From the NCBI GenBank assembly GCA_023818895.1, contig JAMWCX010000001.1:299789-331788 (forward strand): DNA of 32,000 bases, given 5' to 3'. This document shows positions 456-31,999 of the stretch, in pieces; position 1 is the stretch's first letter; each line of letters opens with the position of its first letter. A program made the position numbers and the translations under genes. The notes beneath the pieces were generated by a model, which made no database searches, was not told where the DNA came from, and saw only the letters and a list, made by a program, of their open reading frames with translations. The DNA is from Candidatus Omnitrophota bacterium. GTDB lineage: Bacteria > Omnitrophota > Gorgyraeia > 2-01-FULL-45-10.

Positions 456-1058
456 CTATACTTTATACCAATCCAGTTCGTGCGCTAGGTCCTTAATCTC
501 TTTTTGCAAACGGTCAATATTGTTATCGAACTGACTGATATCTGCGGGCTTCGAATCAGCAAGTTTTTTTAGGTTTTCCAGCTCAATAAGGACTTTGGTA
601 AGGCTTGCCTTTTGGCGTCCTATCGTTTGCTTCATACTATCAGACAAAAGATTAATTTTATCAGCGATTGAACCTAATTCATCGCCTTTTCTAAGGCTAA
701 GGCGCGAGGTAAGGTTGCCGCCTGCCATATCCTCCAAAAATCTCTCCATCCTATATATAGGACCAGCTATCTTATGTGATAGGTATATACCTATATACGC
801 GACAAAAGGCATAAGGAGTACAATGCTCAACAAAACCCTGAAATTAACCGTTTTTATTATTGCTATCAGCCTACCTTGTGGATAAACATTCGCGAGCTTT
901 TCTGCAAGAAGTATCATGCTTGAATAATATACAACATACGAGCACACAATAGCGGTTATAAACATCAAAAGCAAGATTAACCCTACATATTTGAGTTGAA
1001 ATTTCGCCGAGACAAATAGTTGCTTTCTTTTGAATCTGGTCTTGTTATTAGCTATCAT
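456..1058 (-). CDS. Two-TM HAMP-domain protein with C-terminal coiled coil and no output domain
   Basis: 200 aa. It has two hydrophobic helices (YVGLILLLMFITAIVCSYVVYY and VLLSIVLLMPFVAYIGIYL). A HAMP-like segment follows (SHKIAGPIYRMERFLEDMAGGNLTSRLSLRKGDELGSIADKINLLSD), then heptad-rich sequence. The ATG start overlaps the upstream stop as ATGA. Confidence 0.75.
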   Translation of the reverse strand: MIANNKTRFKRKQLFVSAKFQLKYVGLILLLMFITAIVCSYVVYYSSMILLAEKLANVYPQGRLIAIIKTVNFRVLLSIVLLMPFVAYIGIYLSHKIAGPIYRMERFLEDMAGGNLTSRLSLRKGDELGSIADKINLLSDSMKQTIGRQKASLTKVLIELENLKKLADSKPADISQFDNNIDRLQKEIKDLAHELDWYKV

Positions 1059-2038: not shown

Positions 2039-2039
2039 T

Positions 2040-3232: not shown

Positions 3233-3973
3233 CTAACTATTGATCAGAGACGCGAAATATGCGGCCCCGAATCCATTATCTATATTCACAACAGCAACGC
3301 CAGGAGAACACGAGTTCATCATTGTAAGAAGCGGGGCTATGCCTCCAAAACTGGCGCCGTAGCCTACACTCGTCGGAACAGCTATAACGGGCCTTGATAC
3401 TAGTCCGCTTACCACACTCGCAAGCGCGCCTTCCATTCCAGCAATCACTATTATAACGTTTGCCTTATCAAGAAGGTGCTTCATATTAAGTATCCTGTGA
3501 ATCCCCGCCACACCAACATCACAGAGCATCTCAACATAATTACCCATCAGCTCAAGCGTGGCGCGCGCCTCTTCGGCAACCGGTATATCAGCGGTCCCTG
3601 CCGTTATTATCAGCACCAGACCCTTTTTCATGACAGGCGAACTCTTTCGGTAGCTTATTATCCCTGCCCTCTTGTTATATTTGACGGCCGGGTAAAGTTT
3701 CTTCAGTTTTTTGAAAGCCTCTTCGGGCGCTTTTGTGACCAACAAAAGACGCTCGCGCGCTATAATTCGCTTGGAAATAGAAACTATCTGGTCCACTGTT
3801 TTTCCTTTACCGAAGACGACTTCCGGAAACCCTCTGCGCAACGCCCTGTGATTGTCTATCTTGGCGAAACCGATGTCCTTAAATGGCAAATCCCGTAACA
3901 ATCGCAGAGCGTCAGCCACATCAATCCTGCCCGACTTAAAATCCCTCAATACTTTAACTATACGCTCAACCAT
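3233..3973 (-). CDS. larB: LarB, pyridinium-3,5-biscarboxylic acid mononucleotide synthase (PurE-like)
   Basis: 246 aa. It has a PurE-like core with TAGTADIPVAEEA and IAGMEGALASVVSGLV motifs and a typical LarB N-terminal extension. It lies immediately upstream of larC. Confidence 0.85.
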   Translation of the reverse strand: MVERIVKVLRDFKSGRIDVADALRLLRDLPFKDIGFAKIDNHRALRRGFPEVVFGKGKTVDQIVSISKRIIARERLLLVTKAPEEAFKKLKKLYPAVKYNKRAGIISYRKSSPVMKKGLVLIITAGTADIPVAEEARATLELMGNYVEMLCDVGVAGIHRILNMKHLLDKANVIIVIAGMEGALASVVSGLVSRPVIAVPTSVGYGASFGGIAPLLTMMNSCSPGVAVVNIDNGFGAAYFASLINS

Positions 3974-3975
3974 AT

Positions 3976-4371
3976 CTACCTAAAAATCAGATAAAGAAGC
4001 ACGCCTATTATGAAAAGCGATAATATATAAAAATCATTAAAATAGAAAAAGTCGCGGATCTTTTCAGCCGTCGAATAATCATACTGGCGCGTGTGGGGCT
4101 CCTTCCGCTTAATGTCCCTTTCAAGGTCAGTGTAAGGATGGGTAGGCCGGCCCTTTCTGTCAAGATGCGGCTTTACCTTATCCGGCGATTTCTCTTCAAA
4201 ATCGAATATCTCGGACCGTATGGCATCTATCTGTTCTTTGCGAAACCTCAGGAAGGAGCCTCCTATCCTGTAGGCGGGTATTTCGCCCATATCAACAAGT
4301 CTCTTGACCTCTTCTTCCGATATCTTGAGATATGCCGCAACTTCGGCTATCGTCAGTAATTTTTCAGCCAT
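3976..4371 (-). CDS. Excisionase-type HTH protein with C-terminal transmembrane anchor
   Basis: 131 aa. The N-terminus is LTIAEVAAYLKISEEEVKRLVDMGEIPAYRIGGSFLRFRKEQID (HTH_17-like). A charged linker follows, then a single C-terminal hydrophobic helix FYILSLFIIGVLLYLIF. Confidence 0.65.
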   Translation of the reverse strand: MAEKLLTIAEVAAYLKISEEEVKRLVDMGEIPAYRIGGSFLRFRKEQIDAIRSEIFDFEEKSPDKVKPHLDRKGRPTHPYTDLERDIKRKEPHTRQYDYSTAEKIRDFFYFNDFYILSLFIIGVLLYLIFR

Positions 4372-4394: not shown

Positions 4395-4934
4395 TTACCG
4401 TATCTTCCCCGCGGCGACCCACTCATCGATCTTCGCGCGGTCAAATTTCCAGACATCCCCATCCTTGAATCCCGGAAGCTTTCCTGAGCTAACCCATTCA
4501 AGGATCATCGCTGAATCTACTTCCAGGTATTTAGCGACATCTTCGGGCGTCATCAAACCCGAAGACGGATGATGATCCTGGCCGGCTTTTGGCCTCATCC
4601 TGCAATTGCCGTCAAAAATCGCCCCATCAGCTATAGTCAGGCGAGGCGTCCTTATATCACCGGTTATCTGGGCCGGCTTAATAATCTTGAGCTCTTTAAG
4701 AGCGTGGATATTACCGTTCACTTTTCCAGCTATGACTATAGTCTCTCCTGTTATGTCCGCGTTCACCACCGCATGTTCGCCTATCGTCAGATCTCCTCTC
4801 GTATTCAAAGTGCCTTCGAACCTGCCGTTGATCCTCAGGCTTACCGGATCTTTAAATACGAGAGACCCCTGCATAGAGGCGTCCACATCCAACACCCTTG
4901 CCGCATCATGGTTTTTGTGCCTTTTCCCTATCAT
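4395..4934 (-). CDS. Bactofilin (DUF583) domain fused to a C-terminal excisionase-type HTH
   Basis: 179 aa. A bactofilin beta-helix repeat pattern runs through residues about 20-112 (SLRINGRFEGTLNTRGDLTIGEHAVVNADITGETIVIAGKVNGNI...ITGDIRTPRLTIADGAIFDGNCRM). After a short linker comes MTPEDVAKYLEVDSAMILEWVSSGKLPGFKDGDVWKFDRAKIDEWV. The SD is GGAGGTGGGGT directly before the ATG. Confidence 0.75.
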   Translation of the reverse strand: MIGKRHKNHDAARVLDVDASMQGSLVFKDPVSLRINGRFEGTLNTRGDLTIGEHAVVNADITGETIVIAGKVNGNIHALKELKIIKPAQITGDIRTPRLTIADGAIFDGNCRMRPKAGQDHHPSSGLMTPEDVAKYLEVDSAMILEWVSSGKLPGFKDGDVWKFDRAKIDEWVAAGKIR

Positions 4935-14311: not shown

Positions 14312-15268
14312 TTATTTGAACGCGATATAGGCGGATCTCTTAAGGCCCTCTACCCAACCCTTCATCTTTTCTTTGGCCCTCTCGAGAAATATCGCGTCTT
14401 CTATCATCTTTCTGGCCTCAGCGAGGCTAAGCGTCTTTTGCTCGTGTTTTTCCTCCACCTTGAAAAAATGGTATCCGATACTGGAGCGTATCACCCCAGA
14501 AATTTCCCCCTGCTTGAGGCTAAATACCACATCTTCTAGGTCCGGCATTAGATCGCCTCTTCTTACAAATCCCATCAATCCGCCATCCGAAGCCCCTGGC
14601 CCTTGAGAATATAGCTTTGCGAGTTCCGCGAAGTCGCCCCCTTCTTTTAGACGGGTATCTATCTCTTTCACGCGCTCAAGCACCTTCTGCTCGTCCGTAT
14701 CGGGGCCTGTTTTTATCAATATGTTGCGCACTTTCACTTCTTCCGGCTGGGTGAACTCGCTGGCATGCTTCTCATAGTAGCTACTCACATCGCCAGGAGT
14801 TATTATGATAGTCGCGCCAACCTTGGCATCGACAAGCTTTCGGGACATGATCTGTTCTTTAAAACGCTCTCTCAACTCTTTAAGTGTCATGTGCTGTTCC
14901 GCCAGAGCTTGCTCAAACATCTGCGGCGACGCAAAACGCTTCTGGACTTCCTCTATTTTGGCGTCTATCTCTTTTTCAGTTACCTCTATCTTCATCTTCT
15001 TTGCCTCACCGAGGATAAGCTTGTCGTTTATAAGCTGAGCTATGATGGCCTGTCGCGCATCATCCAGCTTCTTGACCAGCTTATCTGCCGGGTAGAGGCT
15101 CTTGTACTGATGATATAGCGGCGCGAGCATCCTGTCTATCTCGCTCTGCGTTATAACCTCATTATTTACCACCACCACTATCCGATCCACAACCTCGCCG
15201 GCTGCGCGCATCACAAATGTGAGCGCAATTATTACCACGATGCTCAAATACAATATTCTTCTTTTCAT
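14312..15268 (-). CDS. surA: SurA-like periplasmic chaperone with one parvulin PPIase domain
   Basis: 318 aa. It has a signal-like N-terminus, a SurA_N-like helical region and a parvulin segment (VRNILIK...GGLMGFVRRGDLMPDLEDVVFSLKQGEISGVIRSSIGYHFFKV). The symbol is by analogy only. Confidence 0.75.
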   Translation of the reverse strand: MKRRILYLSIVVIIALTFVMRAAGEVVDRIVVVVNNEVITQSEIDRMLAPLYHQYKSLYPADKLVKKLDDARQAIIAQLINDKLILGEAKKMKIEVTEKEIDAKIEEVQKRFASPQMFEQALAEQHMTLKELRERFKEQIMSRKLVDAKVGATIIITPGDVSSYYEKHASEFTQPEEVKVRNILIKTGPDTDEQKVLERVKEIDTRLKEGGDFAELAKLYSQGPGASDGGLMGFVRRGDLMPDLEDVVFSLKQGEISGVIRSSIGYHFFKVEEKHEQKTLSLAEARKMIEDAIFLERAKEKMKGWVEGLKRSAYIAFK

Positions 15269-16149
15269 AACTGCTTGCCTGAGGCGTCTTCAGCAGAGGT
15301 TTGCGACTCAAGCGATTTCAAAACCTCTTCCTGTATCTCCACCCCATATTTTTTCTTAAGTCTATCCACCAACTGGTCGAAAAGAGCCCGCCGACTCGCC
15401 TTCTTGAGCTCGAGCTCTATGGCCTGGCGGGCGCTCTCATACGTTTCTAAGCCGCCGCTTTTCTTGTCGGTCAATTTTACTATATGATAGCCGAACTGCG
15501 TATGTATGACATCGCTTATCTCTCCGACATTGAGCTTTAGGCATGCCTTCTCAAAATCGGGGATCAGCTGGCCGGTCTTGAAATAACCAATATCTCCGCC
15601 CCGCGATGCGGTCGCATCCATCGACTTCTGGCGGGCAAGGTCTTCAAACTTTGCGCCTTTGGAAAGTTCCTCGAGGATGCTCTTGGCTTCCGCCTCAGAG
15701 CTAACAAGTATATGAGAGGCGCGCCACATTTCAGGGGATCTGAAATCTTCCTTGTGCAGCTCATAGAATTTCTTCATATCCTCCTCGGATACGGAAGCCT
15801 TATCATCGACTTGTGTCTTTATAAATTTGGCTATAATTATCTTCTTCTTCGCCTCTTCGATAATCTCGAGCACTTCCTTATCCTTATTAATCCCTTCCCT
15901 AAGGGCCTCTTCATAGAATAACCGTTCGGCGATCATCTCATCGAGGTATCTGCGCTTGTTCTTATCCACCACGCTCTGGTAATAAGACGGCATCCTGTCC
16001 ACCCTGGCCCGGAAGTCGCTTACGGTTATATAATGATTGCCGGCCCGCGCAAGTATCCTGCCATCTGGCGCGCTTTTTTTGGAGCATCCAAAAAAGAATT
16101 GCGCGCAAAGAAGCAAGAAGATAAAAAGAATGATATATTTTCTGCTCAT
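15265..16149 (-). CDS. PrsA-like lipoprotein parvulin PPIase
   Basis: 294 aa. It has a lipobox-like LLCAQFFFGC and a parvulin segment (ASHILV...GGDIGYFKTGQLIPDFEKACLKLNVGEISDVIHTQFGYHIVKL). It has an ATGA overlap with the downstream gene. Confidence 0.8.
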   Translation of the reverse strand: MSRKYIILFIFLLLCAQFFFGCSKKSAPDGRILARAGNHYITVSDFRARVDRMPSYYQSVVDKNKRRYLDEMIAERLFYEEALREGINKDKEVLEIIEEAKKKIIIAKFIKTQVDDKASVSEEDMKKFYELHKEDFRSPEMWRASHILVSSEAEAKSILEELSKGAKFEDLARQKSMDATASRGGDIGYFKTGQLIPDFEKACLKLNVGEISDVIHTQFGYHIVKLTDKKSGGLETYESARQAIELELKKASRRALFDQLVDRLKKKYGVEIQEEVLKSLESQTSAEDASGKQL

Positions 16150-16192: not shown

Positions 16193-18109
16193 TTATTTGC
16201 CCGCCGCCAGACGACTTTGACTTTGTCGATAAGAATCTATAGCGGCTTTGAGAAGCCGACAGTACATGTCAAAACCGACGGCGTTTATATAACCGTGCTG
16301 TTCTACTCCCAACAAGTTGCCGGCCCCTCTTATCTGGAGGTCCTCCATCGCGAGCTTGAACCCGCTTCCGAGCTCTTGAAACTTTTTTATGGCCGCCAAC
16401 CTTTTTTGAGACTCGGAGGTCAGTACGAAGTTTTTGGGCACCAATAGATACGCAAACGCCGCTCTGCTAAAACGTCCCACCCTGCCACGTAGTTGATACA
16501 GCTCGGAAAGACCGAAAGTGTCAGCCCTGTTTATTATTATAGTATTGGCGTTGGGTATATCAATCCCCGACTCTATTATAGTCGTCGAAACCAGGCAATC
16601 TATCTGGCCGTGTATAAATTTTATCATCGTGTCCTCAAGCATCCTCTCAGACATCCTGCCGTGCGCGACCACAACGCTTACTCCCGGCACCAGCGACGAT
16701 ATCCTCCTGGCGATCTTTTCGATCCCCTCGATCCTGTTGTGCACAAAAAACACCTGACCGCCCCGTGATTTTTCCCTGAGTATCGCTTCTTTTATAAGAG
16801 CCTCGTCATAATAAGCTACCTTTGTTTCCACCGGAAGCCTCTCCGAAGGAGGAGTATTAATTATCGATATATCACGGCCGCCCATAAGGGCAAGGTAAAG
16901 AGTGCGCGGTATAGGGGTCGCGGTGAGAGTCAACACGTCCGTCGAAACACGGATCTTCCTTAGGTGCTCCTTGTGCCGCACGCCAAAACGCTGCTCCTCG
17001 TCTATTATGACAAGGCCCAGGTCTTTAAATTTTATGTCGTCCGAAAGAAGTCTATGTGTTCCGATTATGATATCGATCCTGCCCGAGGCGAGGTCCTTTA
17101 TTATTTTCGCCTGTTCTTCCGCTGTCCTGAAACGGGAAAGCATTTCCACCGCCACGGGAAAATTTTTCATCCGCAGCGAAAAAGTATTGAAGTGTTGTTC
17201 TGCGAGAATGGTCGTTGGAACAAGGATGGCCACCTGTTTATTGTCCATCACAGCCTTGAAGGCCGCCCTGAGCGCCACCTCCGTCTTGCCGTAACCAACG
17301 TCTCCGCACAGCAGTCTGTCCATAGGAATGGGCCGTTCCATGTCCTTTTTTACCTCCTGAGTCGTACGAACCTGATCAGGGGTCTCCTTATACGGAAACT
17401 CCTCCTCAAGTTTTTTCTGCCATTCCGTGTCGGCGGAAAATTTGAATCCCTCGGCGGTGGCGCGCTTCGCCTGAAGATCCAGAAGCTCGACAGCCACCTT
17501 GTAAACTCCCTTTCCGGCCCTCTCCTTTGCCGCCTTCCATATTCTAGAACCAAGCTTGTGCAGCTTCGGCGGTCTCTTCTCAAAACCGAGATACTTCTGC
17601 ACCTTGTCCAGGTCGACGAATGGAACATAAAGCTTTTCACCACCGGCATACTCAATCACCAGATGCTCGATGTAACTCTTATCTATCTTAAGCTTCTCCA
17701 CGCCCTGATATTTGCCGATACCGTGGTCTGTATGAACAACGTAATCACCGGGCGATATATCGACAAAATTGTCAATAGGAGAGGCTTCTCCAATCAGCGC
17801 TTCCTTGCGCCGGATCCTTCTTCGCGAGATACCTTTTATCGGTATTATTATCGCTACATTATGTTCCTGAACGCAATCATAGGTGATGGGATCGAGACTC
17901 TGTATCCGTGTTACTCTGTCATGAAGCGTCTCGATCCGAAGAGGGTATTCGAATGTGGCGGGATATATCGTTATCGTGTCGCCGAGCCGGGAGAAGTCGC
18001 CTTCCTCGGCGACCCTCTTAACGACGCGGTAGCCATACTCGACGAGTTTAGAGGCAAGGTTCTCTACGTCTAGCTCTTCGTTAACGTATATTTTTATGGA
18101 CTCGAACAC
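16193..18109 (-). CDS. mfd: Transcription-repair coupling factor, unusually short form (UvrB-interaction domain, RID and translocase only)
   Basis: 638 aa.
- N-terminus: UvrB/Mfd D2-type sequence (GDFSRLGDTITIYPATFEYPLRIETLHDRVTRIQSLD).
- CarD/RID: GDYVVHTDHGIGKYQGVEKL...KLYVPFVDLDKVQKY.
- Walker A: GDVGYGKTEVA.
- Other helicase motifs: IIDEEQRFG and motif VI QLRGRVGR.
- TRG-like: GSGFKLAMEDLQIRGAGNLLGVEQHG.
The GTG start lies 1 nt after the argS stop. Confidence 0.85.
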   Translation of the reverse strand: MFESIKIYVNEELDVENLASKLVEYGYRVVKRVAEEGDFSRLGDTITIYPATFEYPLRIETLHDRVTRIQSLDPITYDCVQEHNVAIIIPIKGISRRRIRRKEALIGEASPIDNFVDISPGDYVVHTDHGIGKYQGVEKLKIDKSYIEHLVIEYAGGEKLYVPFVDLDKVQKYLGFEKRPPKLHKLGSRIWKAAKERAGKGVYKVAVELLDLQAKRATAEGFKFSADTEWQKKLEEEFPYKETPDQVRTTQEVKKDMERPIPMDRLLCGDVGYGKTEVALRAAFKAVMDNKQVAILVPTTILAEQHFNTFSLRMKNFPVAVEMLSRFRTAEEQAKIIKDLASGRIDIIIGTHRLLSDDIKFKDLGLVIIDEEQRFGVRHKEHLRKIRVSTDVLTLTATPIPRTLYLALMGGRDISIINTPPSERLPVETKVAYYDEALIKEAILREKSRGGQVFFVHNRIEGIEKIARRISSLVPGVSVVVAHGRMSERMLEDTMIKFIHGQIDCLVSTTIIESGIDIPNANTIIINRADTFGLSELYQLRGRVGRFSRAAFAYLLVPKNFVLTSESQKRLAAIKKFQELGSGFKLAMEDLQIRGAGNLLGVEQHGYINAVGFDMYCRLLKAAIDSYRQSQSRLAAGK

Positions 18110-22432: not shown

Positions 22433-24723
<2,291 letters not shown>

Positions 24724-24729
24724 TTTGAA

Positions 24730-25050
24730 TTATCCTTTCGCGACTTCTATCTCTTTTACCCTCAGTCTCGTTACATCACGGCGGTGGCCAATCTTCTTCT
24801 TCTCGCTTTTACGCCTTTTGTATTTGTAGGCTATTACCTTGGGCTCTCTTTCCTGTCCGAGCACCTCGCAGACAACCTGCGACCCCTTAAGATAGGGGCT
24901 TCCTATATGCACAGAATTACCGTCCTTGGCTAGAAGCACTTTCGTTATCTTGAACTCCGAGCCGCTTTTTGCGTTAATTTTTTCCACCGTAAACACGGTA
25001 TTTTTCTCGACCTTATACTGCTTGCCACCCGATTCAATCACAGCGTACAT
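24730..25050 (-). CDS. rplU: 50S ribosomal protein L21
   Basis: MYAVIESGGKQYKV is the canonical L21 N-terminus. GGAGG lies 7 nt upstream of ATG 25050. The ORF-track start at 25098 would lie upstream of the predicted -10 element. Confidence 0.9.
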   Translation of the reverse strand: MYAVIESGGKQYKVEKNTVFTVEKINAKSGSEFKITKVLLAKDGNSVHIGSPYLKGSQVVCEVLGQEREPKVIAYKYKRRKSEKKKIGHRRDVTRLRVKEIEVAKG

Positions 25051-25088
25051 CGCGCAACCTCCGATTCTAATAGATTTAATAGGATGAT

Positions 25089-25117
25089 ATAGTATCATTA
25101 GGAAAGATTTTTGTCAA
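25089..25117 (-). promoter_or_regulatory. Near-consensus sigma70 promoter for the rplU-rpmA-obg operon
   Basis: The minus strand reads TTGACA (25117..25112), exactly 17 nt of spacer, then TACTAT (25094..25089). It lies about 40 nt upstream of the rplU ATG. Confidence 0.55.
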
Positions 25118-25180: not shown

Positions 25181-25254
25181 AAATAAGACGACGGGCCGCG
25201 GGAGGCGCCCAAGCCGACGCGAGTAAGCCTGCGGCGATTCATCCCACAGCCCGT
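25181..25254 (-). terminator. GC-rich structured element with U-rich tail after the giant ORF (probable terminator)
   Basis: On the minus strand, ACGGGCTGTGGG ... CCCGCGGCCCGT forms a 12-bp outer stem including 2 G-U pairs. It encloses a GC-rich interior and is followed by CGTCTTATTTAT. It stands out against AT-rich flanks. Confidence 0.35.
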
Positions 25255-25258
25255 AAAA

Positions 25259-28200
25259 TTAAGCGGCGGTCAATACCTCCTTAAGAGTTCGATCCCTTCT
25301 GTGCATCTCCGCGTTTATGTCGATCCTCGTTATCTTCTTGAGCGTAAGAATAATTCCGGAAACAAATAGATTATTAAAATCGGCCTTTAAAAGATCGAGA
25401 TCCTTTCTACCGTTATCCACCATCTTTTCTATTATATCCATAAGCCTGGCCCTATGATCGGGATCGGCCGAATTTTTCACATAATCAAGGACAGGCAATC
25501 CGAACATCACATGCATAAATATCTCTTCGACGGGTACATCCCCTGTTGGCATATCTTCGCTTAACCATTTAAATCGGGCGTGCGTCTTATTATGCTCTAT
25601 AACGGCATCTTTCGATATCATGTTGGCATCAACATAGGCAAGGGCAAGAGTAGCGGGATCGTCCAAATCACCATTCGGCCTACCGGATTCCCTCACAACC
25701 GCCTCATTAAGCCCTCTTTCAGTGCCATCATAAAATATGATTTTTACATTACTGAATCCCTCCTTTCTAAGAGCATAAAGAATATCTGCGCGGGCAGTAT
25801 GACGCGGCGCCAGGTTATCACTTTTCGAAGGTATAAAAAAGACCCTTTTTTCTGCCGGCGCGCGGACTGTCTCCAATAGCCTTATTAGCGATTGGGCTAA
25901 TTCCTCACCGCCAAGACCTGCATCAATTGTCGCTGCATCTAAATCTTTTTCAGTCGTAGCACTGCTATCAGCAGGAACCTGGGCAGTGTCATCGCTGGCA
26001 TTCGTCCTCAAAAGCACTTTCAGCTTCGCGGCGACCTTATCCGTTATCTGCTTAGCCAACGCAGGGTTCGATAAGACCTGCTTGTACTTATAAATGTTGA
26101 GATCATCGACGGTAGCCAATATCGTCTTTACTACCACGGCAAGGAACAACGGCACATCCAAGACGCTAACGTTCAGCCCGAGCTCATTAATCTTTTTTTC
26201 CATTAAATCATTTTTAAGATGCGGGAATCTTTCTTTTGCTTTTTCATATGATAGGAATGTCATTATCCGCGCCAGGATCTCTTCTTCTGTTTTAGTCATC
26301 AGAAGCTGCTCGCTCTCATGGCCGCTCCGCAAGGCGCTCCTTGAGGCTTCTTCAAACTCAGGAAACCGCGCCCGCAAAAACATATGCCCCAGTACTTCAT
26401 GAAGGATCTCAAATTTTTTGATATCTTCCCTAACCGACCAGACACCATCGTCGTTAAGGACCAGGGCGCTTTTGTCCACAAGGAGCATCGTCTCTGGTTC
26501 TCCCCAATGTAGTTTTACCTTAAAGTGGGGGAAAGAATCTCCTGCCATCTGCGAAGCCATGTCAACAAATACTATCCGCGGCAAGATCTCATGCCCATAA
26601 CCCAGCGCGTCAAGATAGGCGCCGACATAGTTTCTTAAATCTCGTTCGGCATCTGGGAAACTCAGTCCTTTCTTGCGCGCATCTTCTATAGCCTCCTTCT
26701 CCAGTCTTGCCCTTCCCGTGATGGACAATGCCGACAACCTGCCTTTTAAAACAGCCGGCTTCATCGGTTTTTTATCAATCTCTCGGGCGGTCGCCAAAAC
26801 CTCCTCTATGACATCAACATATAGCAGCGATTCCGCGGCTAACAAGGCATCCTTATTACCAAAGCCACCTTCCCTTAAGGCGTATTCAATGTTGGCCTTT
26901 CCCATCACGTTTTGGGGGGAGTCGACAAATATCGGTTTTGCGCTATTCTTCCTTGAAGGTAGCCAATGAGTGATATCATGTGTGGTAAGAATGCTGGTTG
27001 GCTTATCGTAAACGCCGCTTGCAAGATGGCTTAGGCCCGTATCCGGCGTCAGCACCCAGTCCGCAATGGAAATTATAGATGTTATCGCCGGATAAAGCTC
27101 CTGCCTTGGCAAAAGTATTCTGTTTGGATTATGATTATCCACCATATTCAATATAGCATCTATCATATTAACATCTTGGTCCATCTTTCCGCCGTGAGTA
27201 AAGACGAGGTAGGCATCTGTCTCCTTAAGAAGCCTCGATATAATGGTAGCCCACGCCCGCTTTGATATTATATCCGGGTGGCTCACCCCATAGACGTTTA
27301 TGATGAATACCTTCTTAAGAGGATCGAATGGCGTAGTGCCATCCGAAGCCTTATCGTGCCACCTCTTGAGGATAGTCAACGCGGCATTTCGCTCTTTAAG
27401 AGTGGGCTCAAGAACGCCAAGACTAGAGACATCCACATTGAGCCCGATATTATGACATAGCAGTATTGAGAAACGCCATATGCTCGCGTCGTCTACTAAG
27501 CCATTCTTGGTAATATCGCTGACGGCCTCTTCGGTTCCCGAGACGATATACGTTTTTCCATCCCTGTCGGTAAATAGCGGCTCCGCCATCTTGCCAGTAG
27601 CGGTAGATAGACTATTTTTCCGAGTGCCGGAAAATAACTTTGTTACGGGGAACAATTTGATCAAATACGGGAGTTTTCCGCCTTCAAACATCTCAGATTT
27701 AATATTATCAAAAACCGATCCCAACCGACGGCTAGTAACATTCTGGTAAAGATCAAAGACAAGGTCAATCTTCTTTTCCTTAATAAATTCTAGGGCTATT
27801 AGCGGATTTTTCATCGTCTCCACGGTGTAGTTTTCCCACTCCGCTAAATCATATTTCCCCCACCTATTGTCGCCCTCCGCCTGCAATCGCCAAATGTATT
27901 CGGTAGGTACGGGTGTTACCTTCCCCTGAAAATGTTCCGAGAAATATATATCGGGAAAATCGGTTGCCACATAAATACGGGCTTGCGGATATTGCTCTGC
28001 CAAAGATACCATAAGAGGCCAGGCGTTTATTATGGCCTCGCCCAGTTTTGGCCCAACTAATCCTTCCTCAGGCGCAAAAACCAGAATATTCTTTATATGC
28101 CGCGGATCCACGATCTTTGTATCGGCGAGCGGCCGGAAAATATAGCTATTTTTATTGATGGGGGCATCTGGCTGGGTTGCCTGCGACTGTGTGGGCATGG

Positions 28201-31200
28201 ACATCCGCACATCCATGTCTTTTTGGTTGGTCTTTAGCTGCATCGTCAGAGCCATGTTATAAAGGCCGACTAGTTCTTGCTGGATCACCCGTAAGGTATA
28301 ATGGCGTTCATCCTCCGCGCTAAGGCCAGCTCTCGGCTCGGCATTTTTTGCGTCCCACCACCATTCATTATCAAAAAGGAAAGCGGTAGAACGCGCGATC
28401 GGAAGCTTATATGCAGGCTCGTTACCGCCGCGTACATACGCGATACCATTTCTTATGCCTACCTTCAGATCGCCTTTAGCCGCAAAATATTCTCCCAGTT
28501 CATGCAACAGGGCGACTGGATTTTTTTCGATGGATTCGTGCAATGCTATGGCTTCGTGACGAGAAGATGAGACGCCATGTAGGTCATCTATGAGTTCGTC
28601 ATAGATATAGAGGCGCGGAGGAGACTTTTCGAATAGCCTCAGCATCAAAAGCAGGATATCCAGGTGACCGGCGCCAAAATTCGGAACATATTCAACCAAC
28701 GCTCTTACAGTATCGATATTAACGCGGCCCCTATCTTTAAGCGATAGGATATGCTTTTCTCCCTTTGAATCTGTTGCTCGCAGCGTGTATCTTCCGTCTT
28801 CATCCCGCGTTATCTCGCCCTTAGCGCGCTTGCCGATACGGCCGTCAGGCCTTGACGGCTCGAAGACGAACGTAAAGGTGGTGCCTGCGCCCTGTTCGGT
28901 CTCCACCCGCATCCGGCCTTTAGACATCTCCATTATCTTGGCGGCGGCCCAAATACCAAATCCATCGCCCTGCGGCTCATCTTCTCCCAACAATCTCATT
29001 GAATAGCTGTCGTCTTTTGTCGTCAGCCCTTTTTCGGAAAGGACTAGCATTATATATTTCTTATCGAGCGCCTCCACTCTACCGGCATCTATTTCATCCA
29101 TTTTATAATAACCGGCATGAATATTCTTTAGGATCACGTCCCGTAGCTTCTCGAAATCAATGCCGGGGCCGTTATCGCTTATTGACATGGCCGGCCTTCC
29201 ATCGTCGGTCATAAAAGTCCTGAAAGTCACCCTGAAACCTTCCCTGTCTTTATAATGCAGCGCGTTAGCGAGGATAGCCCTTATCAGACGCATTACGTTA
29301 TGATGCGCCTCTTCCGCCGATCCCATGGTATCGGAAAAATTCCTGCCCGCCCAGACAAGAGCCTTCGGCGCGCCCGGCGCGTCCAACTCTTTGTCTGCAT
29401 AAAATCTGACGGCATCGCCATGCTCCAGCTCAATAGTCATCTGTGCCCTGTTCACGAACGTGTTGAGGCTCACCGCCTCCCGCGGAAAGTCCGCAGCGTT
29501 TTTGTAGCCGAAATCGAAAGTGGTCTCAAGGCGATTTTCGCCATCTGTGTCCGGCAGGACGTTTTCCATTGTATCGACATCCCCTCTCGCTTCCGCATCC
29601 CCATCCTGCGTCTCCTGCGTCGGTGGTTCATCCGTCCGCGGAACAAGCCTCTTATACTCTTTCCTCCCTTCCAGCACCTCGTTAATATCACCTGGGATGT
29701 CGTATTCCGGCATACCTTTCTCAATCATATCGGCGAATTCACTGCCTGCGACAATCTTGAAATCGATATCGGAATAGGCCTCATCTATCAGTATCTTAAG
29801 CCTGCCCGGAAGATCGTCCGCATTTTCCGCATATTGTTTACTGATCCACCATTTACGCTTGCCGTTATTATCCGTCCATACCTCCACACGGTCGCAATTA
29901 CGCCACTGGTGTGCCTCCTGTAATCCCATTTCGCCGGTATGGCTTCTCGAAATATAGAACATAAAAACCTTGCCCTGCCATCTGGCGAATATTATCTTCT
30001 CACCGGGTATCGACGTGCCCCGCCATGCAGCCATGGCAAATCCCAGATCATCCAGGATCATCGTATCCGGGTCTGACCAGGCCGGATCGCGCGGATTTTG
30101 TCTCATGGCGTCATCAACGACTATAACTCTTTTTATCAATCGGCCTTTATCCGCCAGAAGAACCTGTTTCGCCTGCGGATTTTCTTTTCGTAACTTTTTA
30201 AGGAGAAAACTCCTGTAGCTCAAGAGCCGCTTATAGAATCCTGTCTCAGGCTCCGGCATATTACGGTTTGCGTATAACTGATACATATCTTCAATGTACT
30301 GGCGCACAAAATGTTCCGGGTCGATACGGTCGGCCGACTGGTATCTGTTATGCGCCTTTACCCGATGGAAGTCCGACAGGGCGTCATAGGTAAGCACCCT
30401 TTCATAATTATCGGCAAGAAAAGCCGCCAACCTCCCATTATCACTTATTATGCGTTCTATCGTATTCAGGTATTCTACTACTATACTGTCAACTATGGTC
30501 GGCTCATAAAATTCATGATTCCGCTCGGCATAATAACCGTGTTTATTCTTTAAGACCTTTATAACTGGAACATCATCGCGAAGCTTTTCTAAAAGCTCTA
30601 TTCGATCGATATCGTACCCTTCAAAAGTACGCGAACCTGCCTCCCAATCAGCTGAGGCATACGTAGTATCTTCTTCGTCCTTTTCCTCGCCGAAAGACGC
30701 GAACCCATATCGGCTTTCCGCCCTCCCGCTTTCATTCGCCAGCATAACCACAAAATTAATCGCGAAATGAAACGCCGCCATTATCGCAAGGTATACTTGC
30801 TGATCCATCATCGCAATCGGCAGAAGAGCCAATGAGGATACGGTAAGCAAAACCGGAGCGCGCATCCATTTTGATTCCTTGTCATAATGCAAAGCGATAA
30901 ATACCAACCCCCAAATAAGGTATGACAATGTTATGCTGCCAAATAGGCCGGCCGTGAAATTAGGCAAAAGCCATCTGAAAATTGGTTCTTCAACAAGCGG
31001 CGCAATGAAAAGAGCCCTGATACGTTTACGCAAACCATGACTCATATTCGGTGTCAACAATTTAAGAAGTCTTGTTACCCCTGGACTGAAGGGCTTCGAA
31101 AATACGCTGTTTTTAGTCAGCAGACTCTTTAGCCAATCTAACCCCGCAACTATCTGCCCCCTTTCCAACATGTTTGTCAGAACGGCGGCATTATTTACAA

Positions 31201-31999
31201 TATGAAGCACATATCTGGCGGTATTCGACCGGTCGCCGTACACAGCCGAAAAAGAATTTATCCGTTCTCGATTGCTCAAGGCATTTCTTATGTCATTGTT
31301 GACTTTTACCGGTCCCTTTAAATATGCGGCAAGAGCAAATTTCAGTCGCTCAGAACGATCAGTTATCTTAGAGCTATAATTTTCAAATAACTTCAGCAGG
31401 TATGCACTGCCTGCCCCTACATTCTTCTCCGGCACAAAACGCTCGTCGAATTCCGCGACCCACTTCTTGTAATCCGCCGGATCATATCTAGAGCTATCAA
31501 GACCGTATTTCTTAACAAAATTCCTAGCGGCAAGCCGAAGGGCTTTCTCACCGTCACGGCCCGGCTTCCATTCGCGCTTTCCCTCCTTTATATTGTTGTA
31601 CCTGACTACCCTGACGGCGTGTTCCAGCTGGGCCTGCCAGCGCCTGTCTACGCTAAGCCCCATCTCTACAGCAGCAGGCCCGAGAAGCTGCATGAGTCCA
31701 ACTGCGCCGACTGAAGATACAGCGAAGGGATTGCCATTCGATTCGCGCCGTATGTGGGCAAGCACAAGAGCTATATCCGATATTTCAGGAGCGAAAGTCT
31801 TTTCATATCTTTCTTTTTGGGGTTCGACCTGTTCTCTTTCGGTCTTTTCAGGCAGGATTTCTGCCGGCCGATTTTGATCCGTAGCATTCTCTTTCTGCTC
31901 TATACCTACAGGTTCTATTTCATCATCAGGCGGGTTTATTATCCTCAGCGACATCTTCGGCAAAGTAAATGACATCATTACCAACCCTATTAGCGCCAT
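25259..31999 (-). CDS. Giant multidomain protein (at least 2246 aa): SLT lytic transglycosylase, CPBP/Abi-like TM domain, HK-type GHKL ATPase and GT9-like glycosyltransferase, plus large unassigned regions
   Basis: It is one uninterrupted ORF of 6741 nt. Recognisable catalytic motifs occur in four separate segments (see the domain features). The ATG at 31999 is the first full codon of the window and is followed by only about 10 hydrophobic residues, so the true 5' end may lie outside the window. Confidence 0.85.
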   Translation of the reverse strand: MALIGLVMMSFTLPKMSLRIINPPDDEIEPVGIEQKENATDQNRPAEILPEKTEREQVEPQKERYEKTFAPEISDIALVLAHIRRESNGNPFAVSSVGAVGLMQLLGPAAVEMGLSVDRRWQAQLEHAVRVVRYNNIKEGKREWKPGRDGEKALRLAARNFVKKYGLDSSRYDPADYKKWVAEFDERFVPEKNVGAGSAYLLKLFENYSSKITDRSERLKFALAAYLKGPVKVNNDIRNALSNRERINSFSAVYGDRSNTARYVLHIVNNAAVLTNMLERGQIVAGLDWLKSLLTKNSVFSKPFSPGVTRLLKLLTPNMSHGLRKRIRALFIAPLVEEPIFRWLLPNFTAGLFGSITLSYLIWGLVFIALHYDKESKWMRAPVLLTVSSLALLPIAMMDQQVYLAIMAAFHFAINFVVMLANESGRAESRYGFASFGEEKDEEDTTYASADWEAGSRTFEGYDIDRIELLEKLRDDVPVIKVLKNKHGYYAERNHEFYEPTIVDSIVVEYLNTIERIISDNGRLAAFLADNYERVLTYDALSDFHRVKAHNRYQSADRIDPEHFVRQYIEDMYQLYANRNMPEPETGFYKRLLSYRSFLLKKLRKENPQAKQVLLADKGRLIKRVIVVDDAMRQNPRDPAWSDPDTMILDDLGFAMAAWRGTSIPGEKIIFARWQGKVFMFYISRSHTGEMGLQEAHQWRNCDRVEVWTDNNGKRKWWISKQYAENADDLPGRLKILIDEAYSDIDFKIVAGSEFADMIEKGMPEYDIPGDINEVLEGRKEYKRLVPRTDEPPTQETQDGDAEARGDVDTMENVLPDTDGENRLETTFDFGYKNAADFPREAVSLNTFVNRAQMTIELEHGDAVRFYADKELDAPGAPKALVWAGRNFSDTMGSAEEAHHNVMRLIRAILANALHYKDREGFRVTFRTFMTDDGRPAMSISDNGPGIDFEKLRDVILKNIHAGYYKMDEIDAGRVEALDKKYIMLVLSEKGLTTKDDSYSMRLLGEDEPQGDGFGIWAAAKIMEMSKGRMRVETEQGAGTTFTFVFEPSRPDGRIGKRAKGEITRDEDGRYTLRATDSKGEKHILSLKDRGRVNIDTVRALVEYVPNFGAGHLDILLLMLRLFEKSPPRLYIYDELIDDLHGVSSSRHEAIALHESIEKNPVALLHELGEYFAAKGDLKVGIRNGIAYVRGGNEPAYKLPIARSTAFLFDNEWWWDAKNAEPRAGLSAEDERHYTLRVIQQELVGLYNMALTMQLKTNQKDMDVRMSMPTQSQATQPDAPINKNSYIFRPLADTKIVDPRHIKNILVFAPEEGLVGPKLGEAIINAWPLMVSLAEQYPQARIYVATDFPDIYFSEHFQGKVTPVPTEYIWRLQAEGDNRWGKYDLAEWENYTVETMKNPLIALEFIKEKKIDLVFDLYQNVTSRRLGSVFDNIKSEMFEGGKLPYLIKLFPVTKLFSGTRKNSLSTATGKMAEPLFTDRDGKTYIVSGTEEAVSDITKNGLVDDASIWRFSILLCHNIGLNVDVSSLGVLEPTLKERNAALTILKRWHDKASDGTTPFDPLKKVFIINVYGVSHPDIISKRAWATIISRLLKETDAYLVFTHGGKMDQDVNMIDAILNMVDNHNPNRILLPRQELYPAITSIISIADWVLTPDTGLSHLASGVYDKPTSILTTHDITHWLPSRKNSAKPIFVDSPQNVMGKANIEYALREGGFGNKDALLAAESLLYVDVIEEVLATAREIDKKPMKPAVLKGRLSALSITGRARLEKEAIEDARKKGLSFPDAERDLRNYVGAYLDALGYGHEILPRIVFVDMASQMAGDSFPHFKVKLHWGEPETMLLVDKSALVLNDDGVWSVREDIKKFEILHEVLGHMFLRARFPEFEEASRSALRSGHESEQLLMTKTEEEILARIMTFLSYEKAKERFPHLKNDLMEKKINELGLNVSVLDVPLFLAVVVKTILATVDDLNIYKYKQVLSNPALAKQITDKVAAKLKVLLRTNASDDTAQVPADSSATTEKDLDAATIDAGLGGEELAQSLIRLLETVRAPAEKRVFFIPSKSDNLAPRHTARADILYALRKEGFSNVKIIFYDGTERGLNEAVVRESGRPNGDLDDPATLALAYVDANMISKDAVIEHNKTHARFKWLSEDMPTGDVPVEEIFMHVMFGLPVLDYVKNSADPDHRARLMDIIEKMVDNGRKDLDLLKADFNNLFVSGIILTLKKITRIDINAEMHRRDRTLKEVLTAA
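26960..28102 (-). other. Domain: GT9 (ADP-heptose:LPS heptosyltransferase-like) GT-B module (aa about 1300-1680)
   Basis: The N-terminal half is IKNILVFAP...LGEAIINAWPLMVSLAEQYPQARIYVAT. The C-terminal half is KKVFIINVYGVSHPDIISKRAW..IISRLL...YLVFTHGG and SIADWVLTPDTGLSHLASGVYDKPTSILTT. These match by eye the GT9 patterns ILI....LGD......P....LK...P.A.I..L, K.WP and D.V...DSGP.HLAAA.G.P...LFG. Confidence 0.6.
28859..29317 (-). other. Domain: histidine-kinase-type GHKL ATPase (HATPase_c, aa about 895-1047)
   Basis: It has an N-box RAILANALHY, G1 ISDNGPGID, G2 GDGFGIWAAAKIME and a closing GAGTTFTFVFEP. I see no recognisable HisKA/H-box dimerisation domain upstream. Confidence 0.75.
30725..31027 (-). 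other. Domain: CPBP (CAAX protease/Abi) type intramembrane metalloprotease-like helices (aa about 325-425)
   Basis: Three ordered signature motifs sit on consecutive hydrophobic helices: EEPIFR (EExxxR, aa 337-342), FIALH (FxxxH, 367-371) and HFAIN (HxxxN, 411-415). Confidence 0.65.
31190..31786 (-). other. Domain: SLT-family lytic transglycosylase (aa about 72-270)
   Basis: Motifs are AHIRRESNGNPFAVSSVGAVGLMQLL (catalytic Glu86, codon GAA 31744..31742), PEKNVGAGSAYLLKLFENY and ALAAYLKGPVKV. These correspond to the ES..NP.A.S..GA.GLMQ, N...G..YL and AAYNAGP motifs of Slt70-type enzymes. Confidence 0.8.

Follow-up and report, generated by a model that had tools for sequence, protein, structure and literature searches.

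Omnitrophota giants are among the largest and least understood bacterial gene products, and their descriptions so far are Pfam catalogues on unwieldy proteins. Glycosyltransferase, methylase, HATPase_c, peptidase and SLT domains occur in them together with many transmembrane (TM) segments (10.1101/2023.11.21.568195). Most giants are targeted to the membrane, and PF02518, PF08241, GNAT, HAD and HD domains co-occur as a single module (10.64898/2026.06.07.730766). In gigantic Omnitrophota proteins, enzymes of polysaccharides are also joined with kinase-relay domains, metallopeptidases and methylases (PMC12419801).

The window analysed here, a stretch of 32,000 nt in its full length, contains an ORF whose architecture is one case of the described Omnitrophota multi-enzyme, TM-threaded giants (10.1101/2023.11.21.568195; 10.64898/2026.06.07.730766; PMC12419801). 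Our preferred reading, to which we give a probability of roughly 0.6, is that this ORF is the 3' 6.7 kb of one long Omnitrophota gene for a membrane-threaded, multi-enzyme envelope giant belonging to a family with a fixed plan. The original prediction knew of no characterised match for the architecture; no characterised protein indeed matches it, but the class of giants was already described.

Archaeovorin-type giants (West-Roberts et al. 2023, 10.1101/2023.11.21.568195; class 1 of 10.64898/2026.06.07.730766) come from the same phylum and are likewise encoded by a single very long, TM-threaded ORF. Both mix glycosyltransferase, HATPase_c, peptidase-like and SLT domains amid unannotated sequence, and the TM regions between the enzyme domains of the Archaeovorin type are matched here by hydrophobic segments and by glycosyltransferase, peptidase-like and ATPase modules. 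Both have sequence-unique members, and by analogy the proposed role in envelope or prey-wall attack may be common to them. However, the studies of those giants set a minimum of 10,000 or 30,000 aa, whereas members of the present family have between 1,025 and about 7,700 aa. Because the closest homologue has 5,935 aa, the full gene is probably shorter than the >90 kb (>30,000 aa) of the Archaeovorin type.

SecA_DEAD and C39 domains with type II secretion genes alongside have been described for the largest giants, and the Archaeovorin type has a divergent SecA_DEAD domain, an N-terminal C39/S8 peptidase and type II secretion or sugar-import genes nearby. Against the preferred reading, SecA_DEAD, C39 and S8 domains were not found in the fragment or in residues 636-5935 of the closest homologue, P0002/L001, and neither the fragment nor L001 contains HEAT/TPR or dockerin domains. 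No secretion genes, type II included, and no sugar-import genes were present among the neighbours examined, which for the present gene are those on its downstream side. Modules A and B2 and the conserved caps at the two termini, all presented below, do not appear in the Omnitrophota giant-protein studies that were searched.

SLT domains inside very large multi-enzyme proteins are typical of the polyvalent proteins of phages and conjugative elements, which Iyer et al. are said to have described in 2017. Polyvalent proteins resemble the present protein in their very large size and in joining a lytic transglycosylase to peptidases and other unrelated enzymes. Unlike them, it is encoded on the chromosome among housekeeping genes and has many TM segments; it shows no domains for DNA processing, and viral contigs contained no relatives.

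Extent and coding quality of the giant gene

The prediction of a single giant ORF cut by the window was borne out, with 2,246 stop-free codons (6.7 kb) running open into the window edge (Table 1). The ATG at 31999 happens to be the window's first in-frame codon and is not a demonstrated start. At 47% GC, the probability of such a run arising by chance is negligible. GC1>GC3>GC2 periodicity was observed in all six ORF segments, as in the flanking housekeeping genes, and the codon usage of the segments was close to that of the flanking genes (cosine 0.84-0.94, compared with 0.72-0.75 out of frame).

Table 1. Features of the giant gene fragment and of its 3' flank
Feature	Residues (aa)	Position	Strand	Basis or remark
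3' part of giant gene	1-2246	25259..31999	(-)	2,246 codons + stop; 5' end beyond window
Hydrophobic segment	3-22	31934..31993	(-)	KD hydropathy 1.51
SLT-type lytic transglycosylase module	49-296	31112..31855	(-)	Pfam PF01464, 1.9e-13
CPBP/Rce1-like glutamic intramembrane protease core	327-424	30728..31021	(-)	Pfam PF02517
Orphan region X1	446-890	29330..30664	(-)	Between acidic linkers
GHKL (HATPase_c) ATP-binding domain	902-1047	28859..29296	(-)	Pfam PF02518, 2.2e-9
Module A, alpha/beta	~1054-1267	28199..28840	(-)	Recurrence in relatives, AF2
Module B1, GT9-like GT-B	1283-1700	26900..28153	(-)	Pfam PF01075, 3.2e-5; AF2
Module B2, mostly helical with small sheet	1701-1995	26015..26899	(-)	AF2 secondary structure
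Module C, C-terminal cap	~2030-2246	25262..25912	(-)	Rossmann-like alpha/beta (AF2); ends ...EVLTAA
GC-rich hairpin with U-rich tract, terminator-like		25191..25254	(-)	Begins 5 nt past stop codon
Promoter-like TTGACA-17-TACTAT with TG		25117..25089	(-)	For rplU-rpmA-obg; outside giant gene

Domain composition of the fragment

The four domains called beforehand (SLT, Rce1-like/CPBP, HATPase_c and GT9) all exceeded the curated Pfam gathering scores, and the proposed acidic linkers are present in the translated sequence at the expected places. The hydrophobic segment at the beginning of the fragment is probably a TM helix ahead of the SLT module, and P0002 has a TM segment in the equivalent place (3887-3912). 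For the SLT module, PF01464 (SLT, GH23) scored 50.4 bits against a cut-off of 21.3 over aa 77-118 and a second stretch, with an insertion of ~70 aa interrupting the module. Its motifs are intact, namely the catalytic E86-S87, then G101LMQ and A224AYLKG. E-S, GLMQ and AYxxG, the motifs of family-1 lytic transglycosylases, are common to this module and to Slt70, MltC and MltE/EmtA. Unlike Slt70, MltC and EmtA, however, the SLT here lies inside a giant polytopic protein, between a TM helix and the CPBP core. NCBIfam MltC, MltF and EmtA models match it in part, whereas full-length equivalog scores are far under the NCBIfam cut-offs. The module is 50% identical to residues 3955-4206 of P0002. It is predicted to be muralytic with access to periplasmic peptidoglycan, its sidedness being ambiguous from hydropathy.

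The match of the CPBP core to PF02517 was marginal (aa 327-417; 24.1 bits against a cut-off of 22.4; profile positions 9-93 of 93). The motifs EExxxR (E337E338PIFR342), FxxxH (F367IALH371) and HxxxN (H411FAIN415) were all identified, and P0002 carries the same three, with 64% identity to the core over its residues 4847-4989. As in Rce1, the bacterial Abi/CPBP proteases and MrtJ-type sorting proteases, these motifs lie within ~100 hydrophobic residues; in contrast to CPBP proteases, only the minimal core is present here, inside a giant protein. The MrtJ model gave only an E-value of 0.11, and no substrate gene or C-terminal sorting signal was identifiable near the giant gene.

The GHKL domain scored 38.2 bits with PF02518 (cut-off 26.4) and shows an N box (N912), a G1 box (D942-N-G-P-G) and a G2 box (G1011-D-G-F-G) with a long ATP-lid insertion. 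It matched the histidine kinase of PDB entry 8f71 with an E-value of 0.009, and the partial matches to NCBIfam histidine-kinase models covered their C-terminal catalytic part only. A kinase-class ATP-binding domain had been predicted, of which the HATPase_c match stands. Histidine kinase identity is ruled out because the DHp/HisKA phospho-acceptor domain is absent upstream, where no HisKA-type Pfam match was found at E<=1, and the domain is therefore regarded as a GHKL ATPase.

More than 1,200 aa had been left without a recognised motif. These resolve into module A, a helical HExxGH domain (B2), the C-terminal cap and one stretch that is still an orphan, X1. Sequence searches gave no homologue and Pfam no match for X1, its AF2 confidence was low, and only P0079 aligns, from aa ~816 onward. 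Its codon usage is native.

In module B1, PF01075 covered aa 1583-1685 (23.8 bits against a cut-off of 22) and only profile positions 126-223 of 247, and TIGR02193 (E 0.0014) was far under its cut-off. The AF2 model (pLDDT 84) is a complete GT-B fold with both Rossmann halves. This modelled fold is closest to GT9 structures, with Foldseek placing 3tov (E 4.5e-7, TM 0.62) and 1psw (TM 0.60) ahead of UDP-GlcNAc 2-epimerases. The two-Rossmann GT-B fold is common to B1 and the GT9 heptosyltransferases WaaC/WaaF (1psw, 2gt1 and 3tov; TM ~0.6), whereas the sequence identity is ~13%, B1 has several long insertions (418 aa against ~330), and G-E apparently stands at the base position instead of G-D. 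Two motifs were recognised, K1318LGE (with Glu instead of the catalytic Asp of the N-terminal G-D motif) and D1653TGLSHLA; judged by eye against the GT9 consensus, they presumably occupy the G-D and the donor-site positions, respectively. Unlike GT9 enzymes, B1 is fused to the HExxGH domain. The B module is 60% identical to P0002. ADP-heptose-dependent transfer to a lipid A-Kdo acceptor is a putative activity of B1.

Acidic linker 3 (aa 2002-2031), the sole long disordered stretch in the AF2 model, precedes module C. For this cap, Pfam gave no match and the PDB only one weak local match. It is 47-78% identical to segments of P0005, P0018, P0027 and P0030. The module here ends at the stop codon, and in 26 of the 27 proteins bearing it, it ends no more than 6 residues from the C terminus.

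A family with fixed ends and variable cassettes

An exhaustive search of 1.84 billion representatives found 134 relatives, almost all of them large or giant hypothetical proteins; 62 have at least 2,000 aa, and the longest has 7,703 aa. All taxon-labelled relatives belong to the PVC group, mostly to Omnitrophota, and when ten clusters were looked up, seven members, from five of these clusters, bore the name hypothetical protein of Ca. Omnitrophota (Omnitrophica).

An orthologue search and comparison of domain order had been suggested, and P0002 (5,935 aa), from an independent MAG, keeps the order SLT (at residue ~3,955), CPBP, GT9 module and C-terminal domain, colinear with this ORF. P0002 has no counterpart of our aa 445-1282 and carries ~640 other residues between its SLT and CPBP. 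The extra cassette of the present ORF is in frame and exactly at a linker, and homologues of its HATPase+A part occur in other giants (P0079). Because the 5' part lies beyond the window, the length and N-terminal domain of the giant are extrapolated from this one homologue; the fragment would make up roughly the C-terminal third of a much longer protein, and the full gene probably comprises ~5-6 thousand codons.

The N domain (~570 aa, signal-anchored, with the motifs IHIQDAHCNY...TGGFH...SIMPNF) starts within the first 100 residues of 28 relatives, P0002 and 27 others. Nine relatives, with lengths from 1,025 to 5,935 aa, carry both N and C domains. The family plan consists of this signal-anchored N domain, variable enzyme cassettes and an invariant C domain of ~230 aa. 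The loci of the relatives have housekeeping surroundings that are not conserved, and no integrase, secretion or phage genes were found nearby; because of these contexts, the giant gene is considered a stand-alone gene.

The family is a tractable relative of the Omnitrophota giants, extending from ~1,000 aa (N-cap and C-cap only) to at least 5,900 aa (7,700 in related giants), and its members grow by enzyme cassettes added at linkers. This size series, together with a colinear pair differing by clean cassette indels, provides a natural experiment on giant-gene construction. Moreover, small expressible pieces are available, including the C-cap, module A, an Auribacterota stand-alone GT9+HExxGH protein, and the SLT and CPBP modules.

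Membrane topology and proposed mode of action

The ORF, its domain identities, the family plan, the cassette indels and the taxonomy are shown directly; sidedness, substrates and biological role are what we infer from these features. On the preferred reading, a polypeptide with the cassette order TM helix, SLT, CPBP, orphan X1, GHKL ATPase, domain A, GT9-like module, HExxGH domain and C-terminal cap would be held in the cytoplasmic membrane by the N-terminal anchor and internal TM bundles. Its enzymes would act on the envelope as a tethered battery, most likely all exposed at the extracytoplasmic face. Local opening of peptidoglycan by the SLT would affect either the cell's own sacculus or the wall of a host or prey cell. 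Substrates of the three protease-like modules would be the giant itself, envelope proteins or proteins of the prey, and the GT9-like module would bind or transfer a heptose-type sugar.

The original prediction instead placed the SLT outside, at the N terminus, and 1,800 aa inside. A protein of this kind, with a periplasmic SLT, CPBP in the membrane and ~1,800 cytoplasmic aa, would tie wall cleavage to ATP and nucleotide-sugar chemistry; we consider it unlikely, though deserving of serious attention. It needs an odd number of membrane passes between the SLT and the rest. Five hydrophobic segments were detected in the whole 2,246-aa fragment, and the CPBP core has four, with the catalytic motifs on segments 1, 2 and 4. 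An odd count is possible in that just three of the four are strongly hydrophobic (KD >=1.5, peaks 1.7-2.1; aa 327-347 weaker), but the whole Rce1-like core is matched, and the position of the motifs suggests four passes, which would leave the two flanks on one side of the membrane. Behind the first hydrophobic segment, the linker (aa 23-70) is strongly acidic, with 4 K/R against 12 D/E, as in exported segments, whereas the 30 residues ahead of CPBP segment 1 contain 6 K/R and zero D/E, which conflicts with an SLT outside.

From established enzymology, SLT needs peptidoglycan, and GHKL and GT-B enzymes need cytoplasmic cofactors, which argues for opposite sides. However, stand-alone homologues of the GT9 module begin with Sec-type signal peptides, unlike cytoplasmic LPS-core enzymes, and P0031, a minimal family member, has only an N-terminal anchor. 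Furthermore, P0002 has at least 10 TM clusters spread throughout, and its SLT lies ~3,950 residues from the N terminus, after many more TM clusters; the apparent N-terminal, outside position of SLT is therefore an artefact of the window edge. Considering the four CPBP segments, the Sec-type signals and the single anchor of P0031, we find it more likely, on hydropathy, that the SLT and the C-terminal 1,800 aa lie on the same side of the membrane.

Extracytoplasmic placement would leave an ATPase and an NDP-sugar-type glycosyltransferase without obvious cofactors. This sharpens the paradox of ATP- and nucleotide-sugar-type domains apparently on the exported side, and its resolution bears on a possible delivery of enzymes by these bacteria into host cells or onto them. 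Taken as a whole, the original interpretation agrees with our results in its ORF, domains, linkers, terminator and promoter, and taxon, but not in its N-terminal SLT, topology and kinase class.

Possible self-processing

Alternatively, the ORF might encode a polyprotein precursor that is cut after insertion by its own CPBP core, HExxE module A and HExxGH module B2, the fusion being a delivery form. Three protease-like motif sets do occur within 2,246 aa, and cleavage of giant proteins by C39/S8 domains has been speculated in the literature. We nevertheless regard this as decidedly unlikely, as a cleavage-site pattern was not recognised, and neither module A nor B2 has a significant sequence or fold match to peptidases.

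Module A occurs in 114 copies in 73 of the 134 relatives, with up to four per protein, and comes after different enzymes (HATPase in this ORF, a methyltransferase in P0004 and a HAD hydrolase in P0070), which speaks for the polyprotein reading. Across 111 copies, H-E-x-x-E/H (E in 90, H in 14) and H-Y-x-x-R are nearly invariant; the residues here are D1139, H1166-E1167-x-x-E1170 and H1233-Y-x-x-R1237, but this copy has N in place of the nearly invariant D1248. AF2 modelled the module at a pLDDT of ~90 or above, with a zincin-like secondary-structure order in which a sheet is followed by the helix bearing HE. The BFVD gave a weak match to an SprT-like protein (E 0.02), with no significant fold match in the PDB or BFVD and no sequence match in Pfam or the PDB. 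Module A is possibly a divergent zincin. More doubtful than self-cleavage as such is the specific proposal that module A is a new-fold zincin-like metalloprotease which, with CPBP and the HExxGH domain, makes the giants self-processing polyproteins. If this were true, one gene would export and then release customised envelope- or prey-attacking enzymes from between fixed N- and C-terminal chassis.

Zincins of the M49/DPP III type carry HExxGH on a helix, and their EExR(K)AE(D) motif gives the third ligand. Module B2 has H1867-E-V-L-G-H1872 on a helix and E1905-E-E-I-L-A-R on a later helix, and both motifs recur in homologue segments. Although HExxGH is present in B2, EEEILAR differs from the M49 pattern. 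For B2, neither Pfam nor the PDB gave a match, and there was no sequence or fold match to any peptidase.

Integrity and genomic context of the gene

The source is a MAG, the orphan X1 has no homologue, the giant protein itself is absent from a word-index protein search whose collection contains the proteins of its neighbours, and the source record may mark the giant gene as a pseudogene. A chimeric assembly, several ordinary genes merged through sequencing errors or a pseudogene in decay is nonetheless very improbable, given that a single ORF of an independent MAG keeps the order SLT, CPBP, B and C and that the extra cassette, with its P0079-like HATPase+A part, joins in frame at a linker. In addition, native codon usage and periodicity are uniform in every segment, and 6.7 kb without stops retain the catalytic motifs of SLT, CPBP and GHKL.

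It is barely credible that the gene belongs to a phage, conjugative element or secretion system, encodes a polyvalent or polymorphic effector and happens to be integrated beside rplU: an SLT in a huge multi-enzyme protein and PHROG endolysin and lytic tail protein matches over the SLT part point that way, but PHROG matches are confined to the SLT and HATPase stretches, IMG/VR has no relative, the relatives likewise sit among housekeeping genes, and the entire 25 kb downstream consists of core housekeeping genes that share strand bias and composition.

The guess that the DNA comes from Omnitrophota proved right, because the neighbouring proteins match a Ca. Omnitrophica MAG exactly; eight of them are identical to NCBI 'Candidatus Omnitrophica bacterium' entries MCM87903xx-904xx. 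Downstream of the giant gene, L21, L27 and Obg were identified in the rplU-rpmA-obg cluster. As had been proposed, the giant gene has its own terminator-like element after the stop codon and the cluster a separate promoter-like element ahead of rplU. The hairpin folds at -42 kcal/mol (z -3.51 against shuffles) and was not flagged by a simple terminator scan. Beyond the promoter-like element, the RBS GGAGG at 25058-25062 is followed by the true rplU start, ATG at 25050.

Coding quality and domain content of the giant ORF

On the minus strand, a single ORF of 2,246 codons ends with TAA and stays open at the window edge, as stated in the original prediction of one giant ORF truncated by the window; the ATG at 31999 is no more than the first codon that the window shows in this frame. 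Each of the six ORF segments resembles the adjacent housekeeping genes in codon usage and in GC content by codon position, with cosines to housekeeping codon usage of 0.84-0.94 for the ORF segments vs 0.72-0.75 in wrong frames. Because codon usage was housekeeping-like in every segment, including the homologue-free stretch, the whole ORF was taken to be native coding sequence, and an assembly or pseudogene artefact is highly improbable. A search for internal repeats within the ORF found none.

All four modules named from the sequence were recovered by Pfam, and the catalytic signatures of the lytic transglycosylase (SLT; E86-S87, GLMQ and AAYLKG), the Rce1-like glutamic intramembrane protease core (CPBP; EEPIFR, FIALH and HFAIN) and the HATPase_c ATP-binding domain (GHKL; N912, DNGPG and GDGFG) were intact. 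No DHp/HisKA partner of the kinase-class domain was detected in the ORF with Pfam or NCBIfam, so that a histidine kinase was ruled out and the domain is a GHKL ATPase module. The initial observation was thus confirmed, and its interpretation was supported in part.

Coordinates of the ORF, its modules and flanking features (aa, residues of the visible ORF counted from the window edge; other positions, window nucleotides)
Feature	Position	Strand	Remarks
Giant ORF	25259..31999	minus	open at window edge
SLT	aa 77-118 and a second stretch	minus	Pfam, above curated gathering score
Rce1-like/CPBP	aa 327-417	minus	Pfam, above curated gathering score
HATPase_c	aa 902-1047	minus	Pfam, above curated gathering score
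Glyco_transf_9	aa 1583-1685	minus	Pfam, above curated gathering score
Module A	aa ~1054-1267		114 copies in 73 proteins, up to four per protein
Module C	aa ~2030-2246		Rossmann-like; ends at most 6 residues from the C terminus in 26 of 27 proteins carrying it
SLT alignment	aa 49-296		P0002 3955-4206, 50% identity
CPBP alignment	aa 302-444		P0002 4847-4989, 64% identity
C-terminal alignment	aa 1283-2246		P0002 4988-5935, 60% identity
Promoter-like site TTGACA-17-TACTAT	25117..25089	minus	between hairpin and rplU
rplU RBS GGAGG	25058-25062	minus
rplU (L21)	24730-25098	minus	mechanical ORF
rpmA (L27)	24493-24723	minus	76 aa
Mfd-like protein	16193-18109	minus	638 aa
SurA-like pair	14312-16149	minus	318 and 294 aa
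Bactofilin-HTH_17 protein	4395-4934	minus
Small HTH_17 protein	3976-4371	minus
HAMP-domain ORF	456-1058

Relatives of the ORF

An exhaustive HMMER search of 1.84 billion representative proteins (query aa 1047-2246) returned 134 matches, 62 of at least 2,000 aa and the longest of 7,703 aa, and local iterative searches on these matches set the module boundaries in seemingly motif-less sequence. A word-index protein search with the whole ORF retrieved only P0001, and SLT plus CPBP retrieved one 245-aa SLT protein. Such negatives are weak for giant proteins, since the closest homologue, P0002, was missed although it is in the collection and shares 50-64% identity over ~1,360 aligned residues. Region X1 (aa 446-890) had no relatives detectable by word index, Pfam or a search against the family relatives. 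Pfam searches of the unannotated segments and ~15 relatives gave no family for modules A, B2 and C, X1 or the conserved N-terminal domain (N-cap).

Five of the ten relative clusters looked up hold NCBI-named hypothetical proteins of Ca. Omnitrophota, and module B occurs as a stand-alone protein of 808 aa in Ca. Ancaeobacter aquaticus (phylum Auribacterota, PVC group). The gene neighbourhoods of four relatives consist of housekeeping genes that differ from one another, and no relatives were found in viral contigs (IMG/VR); the gene thus stands alone in the chromosome, outside any operon or mobile element. On the same evidence, a polyvalent effector of a mobile element is hardly credible.

In the scan of species-representative genomes, one real relative was found, in a MAG labelled Planctomycetia; the other match, from a Thermotogaceae MAG, was an unrelated SLT. 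Scanning metagenomes twice, with the first 450 aa and the last 965 aa of the ORF, gave no matches. The Planctomycetia locus is open over its entire length and corresponds to P0002, of 5,935 aa. Domain order proved colinear between the two proteins for SLT, CPBP and the C-terminal part. Relative to P0002, aa 445-1282 (the orphan region, GHKL and module A) are inserted at a linker, cleanly and in frame, and ~640 different residues separate SLT from CPBP in P0002, which also has a signal-anchor-like start and at least 10 further hydrophobic clusters ahead of SLT. By analogy, the full gene in the window probably has 5-6 thousand codons. CPBP was ruled out as the universal family core, being present, among the relatives, in P0002 alone, with a degenerate look-alike in P0004.

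P0002 residues ~1150-1300 and ~2850-3000 are a near-identical internal duplication, with an HEFFH motif and then a TM cluster (VLMAAPVGMALSAML...) in each copy. Other membrane-adjacent HExxH motifs are HELGH, HESTH and HEIVH. These sequence patterns suggest several membrane-embedded metalloprotease-like modules.

Conserved caps and modules A and B

The N-cap, of ~570 aa, is common to 28 relatives (P0031, P0032, P0047 and 25 others; residues 1-~590), always starts inside the first 100 residues and has a signal anchor ahead of IHIQDAHCNYAAQ ... NLEGG(xGDYD) ... TGGFH ... SIMPNF. It had no Pfam match and no PDB sequence match; its DxH / GD / GGFH pattern, we presume, loosely recalls metallophosphoesterase or TraB/erythromycin-esterase-like enzymes. 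Together with the C-cap, the C-terminal domain corresponding to module C, it occurs in nine proteins ranging from 1,025 aa (P0031, caps alone) to 5,935 aa. Homology of the C-cap to proline dehydrogenase (E 2e-4) was rejected, the match covering a 53-aa beta-alpha-beta stretch alone with a per-domain E of 0.04.

The enzymes preceding module A vary: GHKL in the window ORF, a methyltransferase in P0004 and a HAD hydrolase in P0070. Nearly invariant in module A are D1139, H1166-E1167-x-x-[E in 90 copies, H in 14], H1233-Y-x-x-R1237 and D1248, the last replaced by N in the window copy. Its AlphaFold model reached a pLDDT of ~90 or above; a fold search of PDB and BFVD gave no match at E<=0.001, and its sequence matched neither Pfam nor PDB. 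In the 574-aa P0061, module A (aa 208-433) is joined to an XRE-type HTH (HTH_31/HTH_3) at the C terminus, a layout resembling the pairing of ImmA/IrrE protease with HTH and fitting a peptidase-like role for A. The small-to-giant family series and this fold-orphan module are useful handles on the open problem of giant proteins.

In AlphaFold models, B1 is a complete GT-B fold whose nearest structures are of GT9 (3tov, E 4.5e-7, TM 0.62; 1psw, TM 0.60), and B2 is a helical domain with a small sheet, then an HEVLGH helix and later an EEEILAR helix, both motifs recurring in homologue segments. The modelled B2 layout appears zincin-like, a resemblance unsupported by Pfam, profile-vs-PDB and B+C fold searches; its HExxGH motif presumably recalls M49 peptidases. 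B2 and C could not be separated in the B+C fold search, as the listed matches were nearly all GT-B enzymes. Profile-vs-PDB searches for A, B2, C, N-cap and C-cap gave nothing convincing.

Membrane topology and overall reading

The CPBP core has one weak (aa 327-347) and three strong hydrophobic segments (aa 348-372, 379-400 and 401-424), with motifs 1, 2 and 3 on segments 1, 2 and 4. Four passes would place both flanks on the same side of the membrane. Stand-alone B homologues (P0007, P0012, P0014, P0016 and P0017) start with Sec-type signal peptides, and the minimal member P0031 has its N-terminal anchor as the sole membrane segment. The charge signal is mixed, with an acidic linker after the first hydrophobic segment and strongly basic character in the 30 residues before CPBP. 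Judged by hydropathy alone, the modules of the fragment most likely all share one face of the membrane, probably its extracytoplasmic side, in agreement with reports for many giants (10.1101/2023.11.21.568195; 10.64898/2026.06.07.730766). With such a placement, the ATPase and the GT-B domain would have no obvious cofactors.

We favour, with a probability of roughly 0.6, the reading that the ORF makes up about the C-terminal third of an envelope protein that carries several enzymes, is threaded through the membrane and belongs to a family from the PVC group (mostly Omnitrophota) with an N-cap/cargo/C-cap plan. The protein would present a tethered enzyme battery of SLT, three protease-like modules, the GHKL ATPase and the GT9-like domain. 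The original proposal of a trans-envelope coupler, with SLT outside and ~1,800 aa inside, works only if the number of passes between the two is odd; the four CPBP segments, the Sec signals of the B homologues and the lone P0031 anchor speak against it, and it is unlikely. A self-processing polyprotein, which would be compatible with the tethered battery, is slightly less likely still.

Comparison with known Omnitrophota giants

West-Roberts et al. described Omnitrophota giants with numerous TM regions, GT, methylase, peptidase, HATPase_c and occasional SLT domains, and proposed a role in prey-wall attack (10.1101/2023.11.21.568195). PF02518, PF08241, GNAT, HAD and HD co-occur in giants, of which >90% are membrane-targeted (2026 preprint, 10.64898/2026.06.07.730766), and gigantic Omnitrophota proteins join polysaccharide enzymes, kinase-relay domains, metallopeptidases and methylases (Burroughs and Aravind, PMC12419801). 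The window ORF is a further example of such proteins, and one more multi-domain giant in Omnitrophota would not surprise a specialist. It differs from the described giants in its smaller size class, in the absence of SecA_DEAD, C39, dockerin and HEAT domains and in the lack of secretion genes among the visible neighbouring genes. Its family is also set apart by the N-cap/C-cap plan and by modules A, B2 and C, none of which was found described in the papers searched.

Genomic context

The genes that follow downstream, in the same orientation, are rplU, rpmA, obg, proB, proA, nadD, rsfS, argS and an Mfd-like helicase gene, followed by genes for two SurA-like proteins, pdxA, rsmA, gatCAB and other core genes. 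Eight downstream proteins were identical to 'Candidatus Omnitrophica bacterium' MAG entries within MCM8790388-MCM8790406, which bears out the suspected Omnitrophota origin. A GC-rich hairpin with a U-rich tail (-42 kcal/mol, z -3.5), unflagged by a simple terminator scan, lies 3' of the giant-gene stop codon. This terminator-like element, the promoter-like site, the RBS and the rplU start at 25050 together separate the giant gene from the ribosomal cluster, as had been proposed.

The mechanical L21 ORF begins at 25098; the true start codon is the ATG at position 25050 (MYAVIESGGK). The L27 ORF, between rplU and obg, falls below the 80-aa cut-off of the first ORF list. The Mfd-like protein, with UvrB-interaction, CarD/TRCF RID and helicase domains, is far shorter than canonical Mfd (~1,150 aa); its GTG start may be miscalled, or it may be a reduced form. 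The tandem SurA-like PPIase paralogues adjoin pdxA and rsmA in the classical diderm surA-pdxA-ksgA layout, with surA duplicated. One protein joins a bactofilin domain to an HTH_17 DNA-binding domain at its C terminus, so that a cytoskeletal polymer is, unusually, paired with an HTH; a second, small HTH_17 protein comes next. In the first 1000 nt of the window, a region holding the HAMP-domain ORF, GC falls to 0.37 vs ~0.48 elsewhere.
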